Source: an uncultured Nitrososphaerota archaeon (GTDB lineage: Archaea > Korarchaeota > Korarchaeia > Korarchaeales > Korarchaeaceae). From it: a DNA stretch of 64,000 nt. The translations under genes and the position numbers were made by a program. This document shows, in pieces, positions 3,141 through 53,611 of the stretch. The DNA lies in assembly GCA_964594835.1 (NCBI GenBank), contig CAZQNA010000001.1, forward strand, positions 1 to 64,000, written 5' to 3'. The notes beneath the pieces are model-generated. The model saw only the letters and a list, made by a program, of their open reading frames with translations. It made no database searches and was not told where the DNA came from. How positions within the stretch are numbered: the first letter of the stretch is position 1; each line of letters begins with the position of its first letter.

Positions 3141-4253
3141 GTGTCGTCGGCCGGCGACGGGCGGGGGACGCTCAGGGAGAGGGTAGCCAGGCTCCTCAGG
3201 TCTCGGGGATACCGCGTCCGCGTTGACGAGGTCATGGTCGGCAGGTCCGGCCGAAGGTATGAGGTTCAGGCCTACGCAGAGTACAGGGCGCCCCTCCTCA
3301 CATTCCGCATCGCCGTCGCGTGCCTGGAGAGGGGGGAGCCCGTGGGGGCGGACGAGGTCTACGAGCTCCTCCAGGCCCTCGACGACCTGGGTCTGGACAG
3401 GGGCATCATCGCCACAACCTCCTGGTTTACCCCAGAGGCCATCGAGGCGGCTGGGGGACGCGTGTCCCTATGGGACGGGCCCAGGGTGGAGGAGCTCACG
3501 CGCGACCTCCCCAGGACCTCCTCCCTGCCGCACGAGCTGAGGATCTATCACGTCCCTCCGAGGATCGGGGTAGAGAGGGCCGTTGAGAGGATACGGAGCC
3601 TCCTGAAGAGGCCCATCCTGGGCAAGAGGGAGACACTCGCCTCCAGGGTTGCCCTAATCTACCTCCCGGTATACGAGTTCAGGGCGGCGCCCGCCGGCGC
3701 CCGTGAGGGCGCCTCAGTCGCGCTCGACGCCCTGACCGGGGACATCCTGATCCCGGGTGGGAGGGGGATCAGGAGGGTTAGCCTGCCCAGAGACCTGACC
3801 GAGGTTCACCTGAGGATCCTGTCGGCCCTGAGGTCAGGCCCCGCCCTCGTGGCAGATCTGGCCGAGTCCCTCGGGCTGGAAATCGGTGTCGTGGACTCGG
3901 CGGTCAGGGAGCTCGCTGGAAGGGGGCTCGTGGACGACTCCGAGGTGGAGAGGGTCCGTCTGAGGATCGAGATTCCCACCCTCGAGGGGTCGGGGAGCAT
4001 CCTCAGGCTCGGCGCCAAGAGGGGGAGGCCCGGCGGCAGGAGCATGGAACCCAGGATCCCGGTGGGCGAGGCCGCTGCGAGGCTCGAGATCCTCCTGGGG
4101 GTCGAGACCTCGGGGCCCAGGCTGATCTTCCTGCCGCACTACTACGCCGTGGCCGAGCGAGACGGCTCCAGGAGAGTCGTGTCGGTGGACGGGGTTTACG
4201 GATCAGAGGCCGAGGGGGCCGAGGAGTTGATACAGGGCTTTCTTGGCCTATGA
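3141..4253 (+). CDS. Mrr-like restriction-endonuclease-fold protein with wHTH domain (catalytic residues apparently lost)
   Basis: GYRV...GRSG...RGIIATTSWFTPEA...VSLWDG Mrr pattern; HLRILSAL...LAESLGL...VRELAGRGLV wHTH. Confidence 0.7.
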   Translation: MSSAGDGRGTLRERVARLLRSRGYRVRVDEVMVGRSGRRYEVQAYAEYRAPLLTFRIAVACLERGEPVGADEVYELLQALDDLGLDRGIIATTSWFTPEAIEAAGGRVSLWDGPRVEELTRDLPRTSSLPHELRIYHVPPRIGVERAVERIRSLLKRPILGKRETLASRVALIYLPVYEFRAAPAGAREGASVALDALTGDILIPGGRGIRRVSLPRDLTEVHLRILSALRSGPALVADLAESLGLEIGVVDSAVRELAGRGLVDDSEVERVRLRIEIPTLEGSGSILRLGAKRGRPGGRSMEPRIPVGEAAARLEILLGVETSGPRLIFLPHYYAVAERDGSRRVVSVDGVYGSEAEGAEELIQGFLGL

Positions 4254-4261
4254 GCCCCGGA

Positions 4262-4825
4262 TCACACCGCCTGGGCCATCAGGTAGGCGGCCGGGGTAAG
4301 GGGGAGGGCCACCGCGGCCCCCGTCAGGATCTGGGACGGGGTGTGCGCCTTCAGCCTGAGGCGGGCCAGCCCAACGAGGGGGCTGAGGGCGAGGAGAGCC
4401 AGCCCAGCCGCGCGCCCGAGGAGGAGCAGGATGATGGAGGGTCCGACCACGCCGGCTACGTGGACGCTCCCCTTGGTGTGCAGGGCGTTCACGACCGCCA
4501 TCCCCAGCGTGACGAGGGCGTACGCCAGGAAGGCGAACTCGAGTTCCTCGACCCCCCACAGCTTGAAGGCCAGGAATCCGACCCCGTAGCTGGCGGCCGC
4601 GAGCAGCAGGAGGGGCGTCCTGAGCCACCTCTCGCTGACGAACACGTCGAATGCGCCCGACCTGACCACGGCCAACACCGGGGGCATGGGCGCGAGCACC
4701 AGGAGGGTGAAAGCGATCGAGGCCTCTCCGAGCGTGACTCCAGAGCCGCGAGACAGGGAGATAGCCACGGCCGCCGAGAAAGTCGTCGGGGTCAGCGCGA
4801 GCGAGACGGCCTCCTTCCACCTCAT
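4262..4825 (-). CDS. PAP2-superfamily membrane protein
   Basis: Multiple TM helices, KGSVH and ARLRLKAHTPSQ motifs; ATG at 4825 preferred to the longer ORF start. Confidence 0.65.
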   Translation of the reverse strand: MRWKEAVSLALTPTTFSAAVAISLSRGSGVTLGEASIAFTLLVLAPMPPVLAVVRSGAFDVFVSERWLRTPLLLLAAASYGVGFLAFKLWGVEELEFAFLAYALVTLGMAVVNALHTKGSVHVAGVVGPSIILLLLGRAAGLALLALSPLVGLARLRLKAHTPSQILTGAAVALPLTPAAYLMAQAV

Positions 4826-4959
4826 CGCCCGACCGGGCCCTGGGGGCACAAAACGCCTTCGGGCGGCCAAAGCCCCCGAACCCGGCGACCCCACCGTGGA
4901 GCGCGTGGGGCCCGGAACCTTTTTCCAGGGGCGCGGGTCAGTCAATCGAGGCGGCGAGG

Positions 4960-6378
4960 TTGTCGGCCGACCCCCTGTCACACTACTCCCGCGAGGACGT
5001 GTCGCGGGAGATCGCCGAGTACGCCCGCTCCAGGTGGGTGGCCGTCGAGGCCGCCGCGAGGGGCGGCCGGAGGATGTTCTTCAGGTACAGGGGAGACGCG
5101 CCCCTCACCATAGCCTCCCCTGAGGACGTGCCCTCCGTGGTGAGGAGGTTCGCCTTCGCCAGGCCTCGGGCGGTGTACGCCACCGCGAACCTGTACTCCA
5201 GCCTCGCGTCCAGGTCCGACGTGGACGATCCGAAGAGCGTCTCGGCGACGACGGCCGTCTGGGACATAGACAACAACCTGGAGGGGTGGAGGCAGACCCT
5301 CGAGGCGGCCAGGCTGATAGTCGAGGAGCTAGAGCGGGCCGGGGTGACGAGGTCGGTCTACCTCAAGTGGTCCGGCAGGGGCTGCCACGTCCACCTCCAC
5401 GAGGGGGCGTTCTCTGAGGAGCTGAGGTCGGAGCACCACCCGCTCGACCTGGCGTACGCGGTGGTGGAGTACGTGATCAGGAGGGTGGAGGACCGCGTGG
5501 CGGAGCTTGCCGGGAGCTCTCCTCAGGGACGGAGGGCGCTGGCCGTGGAGAACGACATGGACATGAAGAGGGTCTTCACGGTACCGCTCTCCCTCCACAG
5601 GGAGCTCGACGTCGTGGCCGTCTGCTTCAAGCCCGACGAGATCGACGAGTTCGACCTCGACTGGCTGAGACCCGACGGGTTCAGGCACAACCCCCGCTGG
5701 AGGGAGCACGAGGCGGGCGAGGCCGACGACCTGGCCAGGCGGGCCCTGGGGGAGGTGGGCGGGTACTTCACCGCCAAGGCGTCGGGCGAGGTCAGGACCA
5801 GGGTGGGCGCCCCGCTCAGCAGGGCCCAGGCCAAGAAGACGAGAGCGCCCTCGACCGGCAGGGCCGGGAGGATAGGCCGATTCCAGGTGATGGCCCTCCT
5901 CCAGGCGGCCAGGTACTACCTCGTCCGGGGGGACCTGGAGAGGGCCAAGTCGTTCGGCCTCAACAGGGCGATATTCTACGCCTGGGCCAAGAGGACGGGC
6001 GGCAGGGTGCGAAGACCCAGGCCGACGTCGCCCAGGCAGAGGACCCTCCTAGAGGCCGAGGAGGAGGCCGAGAGGCCGAGGTTCGAGGCCCTGGGAGACG
6101 AGGTGGCCTACCTCTCCGACGATGGGTTCTTCGAGATAGGGGATCAGGTCCAGAGGCCGGAGGACTACGAGAGGCAGATAGCGTCCAAGATAGAGAGGGT
6201 AGTGCCCTACGAGGAGGCCTGGAACGCCGCCCTGAACTACCTGTCCACGTTCCCGCGAGAGGTCCTCCTGAGCCAGAGGGAGTTCTTCGAGAAGGCCTAC
6301 AAGCCCGTGAGGGATCGCTTCCGAGAGGTCCTGGAGAGGTACGCCTCGAAGCGGCCGAGGGGGCTCGACGAGGCCTGA
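4960..6378 (+). CDS. Archaeo-eukaryotic primase (AEP)-fold protein fused to an uncharacterised C-terminal domain
   Basis: Motif I WDID, motif II KWSGRGCHVH, motif III region ENDMD..RVFTVPLSLH; separate C-terminal block GRFQVMALLQAARYY...GLNRAIFYAWAK. Confidence 0.75.
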   Translation: MSADPLSHYSREDVSREIAEYARSRWVAVEAAARGGRRMFFRYRGDAPLTIASPEDVPSVVRRFAFARPRAVYATANLYSSLASRSDVDDPKSVSATTAVWDIDNNLEGWRQTLEAARLIVEELERAGVTRSVYLKWSGRGCHVHLHEGAFSEELRSEHHPLDLAYAVVEYVIRRVEDRVAELAGSSPQGRRALAVENDMDMKRVFTVPLSLHRELDVVAVCFKPDEIDEFDLDWLRPDGFRHNPRWREHEAGEADDLARRALGEVGGYFTAKASGEVRTRVGAPLSRAQAKKTRAPSTGRAGRIGRFQVMALLQAARYYLVRGDLERAKSFGLNRAIFYAWAKRTGGRVRRPRPTSPRQRTLLEAEEEAERPRFEALGDEVAYLSDDGFFEIGDQVQRPEDYERQIASKIERVVPYEEAWNAALNYLSTFPREVLLSQREFFEKAYKPVRDRFREVLERYASKRPRGLDEA

Positions 6379-52102: not shown

Positions 52103-52178
52103 TGGTGGGCCGGGTGGGACTCGAACCCACGGCCTCCGCCTCGTAAGGGCGGCGTCATAGCCACTAGACCACCGGCCC
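52103..52178 (-). tRNA. tRNA-Val(TAC), intronless, CCA encoded
   Basis: GGGCCGG acceptor stem, anticodon arm CCGCC-CTTACGA-GGCGG, GTTCGAGTC T-loop. Confidence 0.95.
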
Positions 52179-52188
52179 TCCCTGGGAG

Positions 52189-52276
52189 TGGCGCCGGGGG
52201 TGGGATTCGAACCCACGCGGCCCAATGGGCCACGGGCTCTCCAGGCCCGCCCCCTACCTGGCTAGGGCACCCCGGC
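52189..52276 (-). tRNA. tRNA-Ser(GGA), long variable arm, CCA encoded
   Basis: GCCGGGG acceptor stem, CGGGC-CTGGAGA-GCCCG anticodon arm, GTTCGAATC T-loop. Confidence 0.95.
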
Positions 52277-52301: not shown

Positions 52302-52308
52302 TTATAAC
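52302..52308 (-). promoter_or_regulatory. Probable TATA box of the tRNA pair, overlapping the cbf5 stop codon
   Basis: GTTATAA about 26-31 nt upstream of the tRNA-Ser 5' end. Confidence 0.5.
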
Positions 52309-53321
52309 GATTTGCGTCCCCTCCAGGCGGGAGGGTAGAGGTCCCTCGGCATTACCACCCTCTCGAGATCGGCGGCTATCCCCCTCTCCGCCTGCAGGAT
52401 CTCGGAGGCGTCCATCCTCGATTGGACGAGCGCCACGAGTTCGCCCTTCAGCGTGACGGCCAGGGCGACCCCTCCCCTCCTGAGCCCCTCGCTCACGGCG
52501 ACGATCCCGGGCACCTTGACCGCGTCTCCGTGTGTTATAGCCGACACCGCCGTGTCCTTGACCACGATCCTGGGGACGTAGTCCAGTACCTCCTCGATCG
52601 GCCTGACCACCCTCCTCAGGAGCGTGTCGTCCCCCTCCAGCCAGGCCCTCGAGGCCTTCTCCAGGTCCTGCAGGGTGACCGAGTCCCTCTCGTGCATGGG
52701 GCCAGACCTGACCCGCCTGAGCTCCCTCATGCTCGCCCCAACGCCAAGAACCTCTCCCACATCGTAGAAGAGCCTTCTGATGTAGGTACCGGCCTCCACG
52801 ACGGCCCTCACGAGCGCGTACCTCCCCTCCCTCTCCAGGAGTTCGAGCTCGCAGACCCTCCTGACTCTGAGGTCCCTCGCCACGGCCGCCTTGACGGGGG
52901 GCCTCTGGTATATCGGGCCGGTGAACATCTCCAGGGCCCCCCTCAGCTCCTCGTCCCCCACATCCCCGTGCAGGTAGAGCACGCCGATGTACTCCTTCCC
53001 GGCCCTGGTGACCAGCCTGCTGAGCCTCGTGGCCCTGCCGAGCAGGATGGGGAGCACTCCCGTGACCTTCGGATCTCCCCGGCCTCAGAGGGCCTCTAGG
53101 GTCCCGCAGTGCCCCACCCTGCCCGGGAACCCCAGGATGGTCCTGACCCACCTGGTGACCTCATGCGAAGTGGGCCCCGACGGCTTGTCCAGGTTGATCG
53201 CTCCAAAGTCCAGGTAGACGTCGATGGGCCTCTCCCGGGGTGGGTAGCCGTATGGCCCCGGCTCCGACTCCTCCCTAACCAGGAGTCGACCGGGCCCCGG
53301 CTCCCCGGGGGGGCAGATCAA
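52302..53321 (-). CDS. cbf5: H/ACA RNA-guided pseudouridine synthase Cbf5 (two exons; 332 aa after splicing)
   Basis: NLDKPSGPTSHEV, GHCGTL-D-PKVTGVL (after removing 21 nt), KEY, IYQRPP, GTYIR, PUA domain; TTG start at 53321. Confidence 0.93.
53075..53095 (-). other. 21-nt BHB intron in cbf5 mRNA
   Basis: GGA-CCCU-AGA-GGCC-CUCUGA-GGCC-GGGG-AGA-UCC forms a canonical helix-bulge-helix-bulge-helix; contains an in-frame UGA. Confidence 0.92.
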
Positions 53322-53611
53322 GAGCCCCCTCCTCCCCTGACCCGCGCCTCCTTCTCCAGCTCCTCGTAGATTGTCGTGGCCTTGAGGGCCTCCAGGACCT
53401 CCCCGTCGTCGGCACCCTCCGAGATGTCGATCTTGACGGGCAGGGGAACGAGGTGCTTGATGTTGGCCCTCCTCCGCCGCACGCCCGTCAGCTCCTTCGG
53501 TCCGGTGATCTCCACGAAGTTCTTGTCTATCACCCGAACCACGACGCACTTCCTTCCGGCCTCACGGCCCGCCACCTTGACGCACAGCCGACCTACCTCG
53601 ATAACTCCCAT
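53318..53611 (-). CDS. rpl14e: 50S ribosomal protein L14e
   Basis: IEVGRLCVKVAGREAGRKCVVV..IDKNFV. Confidence 0.95.
   Translation of the reverse strand: MGVIEVGRLCVKVAGREAGRKCVVVRVIDKNFVEITGPKELTGVRRRRANIKHLVPLPVKIDISEGADDGEVLEALKATTIYEELEKEARVRGGGGS

Follow-up and report, generated by a model that had tools for sequence, protein, structure and literature searches.

Within a 64,000-nucleotide stretch of an archaeal genome (contig CAZQNA010000001.1, positions 1 to 64,000; hereafter the window), the gene for the pseudouridine synthase Cbf5, the catalytic subunit of the H/ACA pseudouridylation complex, is interrupted on the minus strand by 21 nucleotides (nt) at positions 53095-53075. We consider it very probable that these 21 nt are an archaeal bulge-helix-bulge (BHB) intron of the cbf5 pre-mRNA, whose cleavage and ligation we infer. 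An intron of this kind is already known. What is new is the host lineage, which is probably Korarchaeia-like and whose one member scored in the literature (Korarchaeum) was given as zero for this intron, and a spread among archaea that is far wider than reported.

The interrupted reading frame (53330-52302, minus strand) belongs to cbf5, as an initial annotation of the sequence had proposed. The whole-protein models NF003280 (NCBIfam) and TIGR00425 match at 374.2 bits (cut-off 242) and 356.9 bits (cut-off 238), the Pfam domains DKCLD, TruB_N, TruB_C_2 and PUA are all recognized, and the best matches in the PDB are Pyrococcus (P. furiosus) Cbf5 structures at approximately 310 bits. The gene is single-copy in the host genome, a metagenome-type assembly of 24 contigs that is 97% complete. 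Exon 1 (53096..53321) codes for the DKCLD region and the GHCGTL motif, as seen in the translation and in the DKCLD and TruB_N matches, and ends at 53096 with the G of the catalytic Asp codon; its presumptive start is a TTG at 53321-53319, the sequence context of which is kept in two congeners. Exon 2 (52302..53074) contributes the AT of the Asp codon, continues with PKVTGVLPILLG..., carries the TruB catalytic core and the TruB_C_2 and PUA domains, and closes with a stop codon at 52304-52302. Compared with two congeners, dN/dS is 0.11-0.12 in exon 1 and 0.086-0.088 in exon 2. Values of 0.09-0.12 mean that both halves are functional coding sequence under purifying selection.

The insertion and its flanks form a helix-bulge-helix-bulge-helix motif (53071..53104, minus strand), which was recognized in the sequence, in the fold, in a strict genome scan and through covariation. 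An outer helix of 3 base pairs (bp; GGA 53104-53102 with UCC 53073-53071) is followed by a central helix of 4 bp (CCCU 53101-53098 with GGGG 53080-53077), which is bordered by two 3-nt bulges, AGA at 53097-53095 and AGA at 53076-53074. The intron itself (53075..53095) reads A + GGCC + CUCUGA + GGCC + GGGG + AG, and its hairpin pairs GGCC 53094-53091 with GGCC 53084-53081 over 4 bp, closing the loop CUCUGA (53090-53085), within which lies an in-frame TGA (53087-53085). The geometry is that of a splicing-endonuclease intron, and the bases and motif parts quoted in the initial annotation proved correct base by base. In the minimum free energy (MFE) fold of 53115-53060 the central helix, the two bulges and the hairpin all reappear. 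Only the outer helix differs, forming as a 4-bp variant with one bulged A that is similar to the 3-bp GGA/UCC whose place it takes. A scan against Rfam gave no family match at the intron site.

We set the intron borders by the rule that places the cut between nucleotides two and three of each bulge (Yokobori et al. 2009, PMC2738675; here and below, statements from this paper refer to excerpts of it). An in silico cut after the second bulge nucleotide joins CUAG to AUCC and yields GTL-D-PK, the motif of intronless Cbf5, with the Asp codon divided as G|AT. The claim that removal of 53095-53075 restores the catalytic Asp codon is upheld by the translation and by alignment to solved Cbf5 structures (3lwo, 2hvy), against which the unspliced frame, reading GTL-EAL*GRG and then DPKVTGVLP..., leaves a gap of exactly seven residues immediately before the catalytic Asp. 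It had also been proposed that splicing is enforced both by the UGA and by the disruption of the Asp codon. The former stands, whereas the latter does not: both bulges are AGA, so that a read-through translation (…GRG-D-PK) would still contain Asp. What is predicted to stand in the way of an unspliced product is therefore the UGA, together with seven extra residues in the active-site loop, and not a lost Asp codon.

The conservation of the structure was assessed in two sets of sequences. For the first, made up of 39 distinct junctions with an intron, the exon motifs set the register and thereby the pairs. Here 153 of 156 cells were paired in the central helix and 100 of 117 in the outer helix, and 34 junctions had an intron helix of 3 bp or more. 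When the register was slid, only 59-105 of the 156 central-helix cells were paired, and permutation of the partners gave a mean of 143.0 paired cells (standard deviation 1.2), with none of 5000 permutations reaching 153. The second set comprised 47 junctions and 12 pairs, and pairs were counted against shuffles. Here 93.0% of the cells were paired compared to 79.1 ± 0.9 in the shuffles (0/500 reached the observed value), 71 cells had changed on both sides compared to 17.6, the covariation score was 0.439 compared to 0.173, and slid registers left 37-60% paired. Helix 1 was paired in 85.6% and helix 3 in 95.1% of cells across the 47 sequences. Compensatory changes occurred in 6 of the 12 pairs, two of them in the central helix that joins exon and intron, and the types of this helix include CCCU/GGGG, CUCU/AGAG, CCUU/GAGG and CACU/AGUG.

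A synonymous exon position covaries with the intron across this helix: ACC occurs with GGGG, ACU with AGAG or GGAG, and ACA with AGUG. The codon choices at the junction follow the presence of the intron, with Leu CTA in 30/39 intron-bearing versus 8/65 intronless genes, Thr ACC in 30/39 versus 19/65, and Gly GGG in 29/39 versus 19/65. Constraint at the synonymous exon sites that build the motif is seen in genes with the intron and not in those without it. A further regularity concerns termination: a stop codon in the frame of exon 1 lies within 30 of the 39 distinct introns, compared to 6/39 and 8/39 in the other two frames. All eight introns whose length is a multiple of three carry such a stop (the other 31/39 insertions are not multiples of three), as do 6 of 10 introns from an Asgard phylum. 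This regularity suggests selection for ending the translation of unspliced mRNA.

We searched for Cbf5 across a genome library and read the junction locus by locus; the host's class is represented there by 40 species genomes in seven genera (g1 to g7), and its phylum-level group by 43. An insertion at the same site was present in 17 of the 41 readable cbf5 junctions of the phylum-level group. All five genomes of the host's own genus (g1) have it, with lengths of 21, 21, 21, 19 and 19 nt, and so do 4/4 genomes with a match in g2 (33, 33 and 29 nt, one contig ending inside the intron), the one genome read in g4 (16 nt), 2/2 in g6 (20 and 20 nt), 2/2 in g7 (25 and 22 nt) and 3/3 genomes outside the host's class (23, 15 and 15 nt). 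No insertion was found in g3, the best sampled genus with 20 genomes, of which 10 were read at the sequence level and the other 10 gave contiguous, stop-free Cbf5 matches of intronless length; the insertion was likewise absent from 4/4 genomes of g5, and two genomes of the phylum (75% and 96% complete) gave no Cbf5 match. The closest named public relative, "Thermoproteota archaeon isolate Kor2", matches at 77% over exon 2 and has a 19-nt intron. Comparison of the host with two congeners shows conserved hairpin stems around a loop that differs (CUCUGA vs GGUUGA).

According to the mechanism that we propose, exon 1 would form pairs through GGA with UCC of exon 2 and through CCCU with GGGG at the intron's 3' end, thereby presenting two AGA bulges 4 bp apart. 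The splicing endonuclease EndA would cut each bulge after its second nucleotide, and RtcB would ligate the exons into ...CUA-G|AU-CCG..., encoding GTL-D-PKVTG with the catalytic Asp in its normal context. Unspliced mRNA would terminate at the intron UGA after approximately 80 residues, and active Cbf5 would consequently depend on splicing. The genome encodes the expected enzymes. RtcB is present on contig C9 (596 bits), and there is one EndA open reading frame (ORF) of 363 amino acids (aa) on the minus strand of contig C4 (L119:1462-2553), with two PF02778 and two PF01974 domains; a second ORF with PF01974 was not found in the genome at E <= 0.01. The C-terminal half of EndA is most similar to chains 3p1z_B and 3ajv_B, which presumably represent the catalytic alpha subunit of crenarchaea, and the N-terminal half weakly matches NEQ261 (chain 3iey_B, E = 3.4e-5), presumably a structural beta subunit. 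The arrangement suggests a covalent beta-alpha fusion rather than a two-gene heterotetramer. Moreover, ARAGORN with introns allowed reports tRNA genes (Met, Pro, Leu, Ser, Asn, Arg) whose introns, 23-46 nt in length, are short and look real, which implies that the EndA/RtcB pathway is in use.

Several observations weigh against this interpretation. No RNA run containing the locus was found among the sequencing runs searched, so that splicing is something we infer. The fold energy is no better than that of shuffled sequences (z = 0.49; 134/200 shuffles fold at least as well), and was for that reason dropped as evidence. With 677 occurrences in this G+C-rich genome of 1.82 Mb, the strict BHB pattern is common by chance, and the outer helix comprises just 3 bp before a G·G mismatch. 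Neither the motif nor its stability alone goes beyond chance; significance comes from position, conservation and covariation. In the latter analyses related sequences are not independent, and the shuffle statistics overstate the support, though their direction is uniform. Finally, cbf5 splicing was linked earlier to a hetero-oligomeric (alpha-beta)2 EndA (PMC2738675), in which the two units are separate subunits, whereas the EndA of this genome is a single fused two-unit ORF that is presumed to accept the cbf5 motif.

That the gene callers report two broken ORFs (53085..53549 and 52302..53057), as had been anticipated, could also be taken at face value. If cbf5 were a pseudogene from which the insertion is never removed, no full-length Cbf5 would be made, and the in-frame TGA, the two separate ORFs and the lack of an RNA run with the locus would all fit. 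We judge this very unlikely, given that the gene is single-copy with dN/dS of 0.09-0.12 in both exons, that joining its exons keeps the frame and yields the conserved GTLDPK motif, and that 5/5 genomes of the genus as well as many deeper lineages retain the insertion with an intact BHB, compensatory changes included. A second possibility is that the UGA is read through or recoded, giving a Cbf5 with seven additional residues before Asp and no splicing at all. The 21 nt are a multiple of three, and the frame regenerates Asp-Pro-Lys after the stop. However, two congeners have 19-nt insertions, which shift the frame, and read-through can thus not be how this genus makes Cbf5; 31 of the 39 distinct insertions are not multiples of three either, and all eight in-frame ones carry stops. 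The insert would also sit where solved Cbf5 structures have none, and no sign of TGA recoding was seen in the genome, where no systematic search for it was made. Taken together, read-through seems very improbable.

The downstream ORF has a GTG start at 53057, which would allow Cbf5 to be made as two polypeptides that assemble non-covalently. Such a split gene strikes us as extremely improbable, since this ORF begins downstream of DPKVTG, so that its product would be missing the catalytic Asp, and since the BHB geometry, the covariation and the constrained synonymous exon sites would be left unexplained. An assembly or sequencing artefact has to be considered because the genome is a metagenome-type assembly of 24 contigs, and we regard it as almost certainly excluded. 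Logan DNA contigs from four runs match the stretch without a single difference or indel; contigs of three of the runs each cover a 701-nt stretch (0 differences, 0 gaps), and that of the fourth covers the intron. These runs represent at most two samples and two studies, possibly the source data, and are therefore not independent, but an insertion at the same site is also found in four other species of the genus.

The cbf5 intron was first described in Aeropyrum and Sulfolobus, and Watanabe et al. in 2002 and Yoshinari et al. in 2006 reportedly worked on the crenarchaeal pre-mRNA. Yokobori et al. (PMC2738675) report it only in Desulfurococcales and Sulfolobales, give an intron size of 0 for Thermoproteales, Cenarchaeum, Nitrosopumilus and "Ca. 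Korarchaeum cryptofilum", and state that a catalytic residue has its codon interrupted by the insertion. The initial annotation was accordingly right in stating that introns at this Asp codon are known from crenarchaea, and the junction is identical in three Sulfolobales/Desulfurococcales loci from metagenome-assembled genomes (MAGs; L066, L075, L102). It was wrong in calling the present one very small: sizes in the excerpted Table 1 of PMC2738675 range from 16 to 44 bp and include a 21-bp case in Desulfurococcus amylolyticus, and those we observed range from 15 to 47 nt. Nor is an in-frame length new, as in-frame cbf5 introns of 33, 36 and 39 bp have been published (PMC2738675). The putative intron described here is homologous in position and architecture to that of Desulfurococcales and Sulfolobales. 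It shares the gene, the site, the BHB architecture and the cleavage rule, and its size lies within the published range, judging from the same excerpts. It differs in that its motif is canonical where the published ones, in those excerpts, are "relaxed", and in that its host belongs to a separate small phylum-level group outside Desulfurococcales and Sulfolobales. The suggestion that the known lineage range might be extended is borne out by the latter. Two later papers repeat the narrow range given by Yokobori et al., and a search of the literature outside subscription journals for cbf5 or BHB introns in Korarchaeota, Bathyarchaeota or Asgard archaea returned no report of a wider range. Two genomics papers on Korarchaeota mention neither introns nor splicing, and neither cbf5 nor pseudouridine.

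Comparison with other systems places the cbf5 intron in context. With the BHB introns of archaeal tRNA and rRNA it shares two 3-nt bulges 4 bp apart and the presumed enzymes EndA and RtcB. Unlike them, it lies within a coding frame, pairs with codons that are constrained at synonymous positions, and mostly (30/39) carries a stop in the frame of exon 1. A functional parallel is found in the splicing of eukaryotic HAC1/XBP1 mRNA by Ire1 and RtcB, where a small intron is removed by a protein endonuclease and an RtcB-type ligase, and where removal gates the production of an active protein. The endonuclease and the recognition structure differ, however, and any regulation through the cbf5 intron would be hypothetical. 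In Archaea, excerpts of Schwarz et al. 2020 (PMC7714728) call the cbf5 intron the only other BHB intron in mRNA, next to that of Haloferax volcanii HVO_1309. Both are mRNA substrates of the archaeal splicing endonuclease, but the HVO_1309 intron is located in the 5' untranslated region of a euryarchaeal mRNA (same excerpts), and the cbf5 intron interrupts the coding sequence at an active-site codon.

To place the insertion more widely, 80 named loci were fetched with the Cbf5 profile, of which 73 had readable junctions; 28 of these carried a same-site insertion. They include 16 of 21 records labelled Bathyarchaeia or Bathyarchaeota, Ca. Culexmicrobium cathedralense, Ca. Jordarchaeum madagascariense (Asgard kingdom in the NCBI taxonomy) and MAGs of Sulfolobales and Desulfurococcales. 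Among the named loci read, those from Methanosarcina, Archaeoglobi, Methanomethylicia, Thermocladium/Caldivirga and the Odin- and Loki-type records had no insertion. We also scanned sampled genomes with a degenerate pattern (GHxGTL, G, 15-45 nt, AY-CCN...GGN), using the reversed pattern as a control, which gave 0 matches throughout. The pattern matched 165 of 401 genomes in the phylum that holds the Bathyarchaeia record as well as the Culexarchaeia and Sulfolobales records (Cbf5 is present in 395 of the 401), and 21 of 301 in the phylum of the Asgard Jordarchaeum record, several of them on contigs >1 Mb. The single match among 151 genomes in the phylum of the Methanosarcina record was spurious (GHVGTF, not cbf5-like). 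The host's phylum is distinct from the large phylum of the Bathyarchaeia, Culexarchaeia and Sulfolobales records. In the Asgard-phylum loci the central helix was fully paired in 10/10, and exon 2 was an intact ORF of 256-262 codons.

A cbf5 tree annotated with intron presence and absence, which the initial annotation had listed as a check, delivered part of what was expected of it: some clades were well supported, whereas the deep branches were unresolved. The Asgard-phylum intron-bearers formed three well-supported clades, none of them nested in a Thermoproteota clade, and an intronless Bathyarchaeia subclade fell inside intron-bearing ones. The trees do not decide between vertical descent and transfer. 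In the host's own family, two genera (g3 and g5) also have an intronless cbf5. Together with the nested Bathyarchaeia subclade, they suggest repeated precise loss of the intron.

These observations lead us to a tentative reading of the history of the intron, which taken as a whole we consider possible rather than probable. A single ancient cbf5 intron, vertically inherited, may predate the split of the host's phylum, Thermoproteota and part of Asgard, and may have been lost many times, its stop codon being a selected gate. If so, the cbf5 intron would be the oldest known intron of a protein gene in Archaea, and the stop would make Cbf5 synthesis strictly dependent on EndA and RtcB, coupling the pseudouridylation machinery to the capacity for tRNA and rRNA processing. 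The alternative is repeated independent gain at a site where the exon sequence (GGGACCCUAG/AUCCC) already supplies half a BHB.

The extended range bears on how old this intron is, the only one known from a coding sequence in Archaea, and confirmation by RNA data would re-date its origin and multiply the number of independent losses. There is also a practical side. Gene callers split or truncate the essential, single-copy cbf5 in the host lineage and in many others, and as a result the Cbf5 marker will seem defective or absent when MAG quality is checked or phylogenies are built. Once confirmed, covariation among the cbf5 introns would be a natural source of data on EndA's requirements in an mRNA, and the regularity of their stop codons suggests a gating function that can be tested. 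In the ESM Atlas, the nearest clusters are 185-230-aa proteins of the "TruB family" from Nanobdellota, Bathyarchaeota and Methanobacteriota. A protein of this length is to be expected when exon 2 is called by itself, and some of them, speculatively, may be truncated calls caused by the intron.

A genome-wide BHB scan for other split coding sequences, likewise proposed in the initial annotation, recovered cbf5. The relaxed motif was not informative (23,315 matches in the genome, 2,824 of them ORF-joining). With the strict motif, which misses relaxed ones, 79 of the 677 occurrences joined ORFs and five were left after a coding-frame filter, cbf5 being the clearest; a second mRNA intron was not found. 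We rejected the candidate at C14:23972-24012, where a membrane-protein ORF has its normal C-terminus. Those at C2:220484-220550 and C11:17841-17896 are poor candidates, with weak downstream coding scores. The candidate at C2:171640-171718 has a 66-nt "intron" flanked on both sides by strongly coding sequence of the same strand, but a stop and an A/T-rich box make it probably intergenic. The many long "introns" of 200-2500 nt reported by ARAGORN, for instance in tRNA-Val CAC (2544 nt; window 3463-6101), are most likely false joins.

On the minus strand, directly downstream of cbf5, lie genes for tRNA-Ser(GGA) (52189-52276) and, next to it, tRNA-Val(TAC) (52103-52178), both called by ARAGORN and matched by the Rfam tRNA model at 52.8 and 70.1 bits. 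Upstream, and in the same orientation as cbf5, the ORF list gives a 97-aa ORF (MGVIEVGRLCVKVAGREAG...; 53318..53611), which is probably the gene for ribosomal protein L14e. At 53318-53321 the sequence TTGA combines the TGA stop of this ORF with the likely TTG start of cbf5, and the overlap suggests that the two genes are co-transcribed and translationally coupled.

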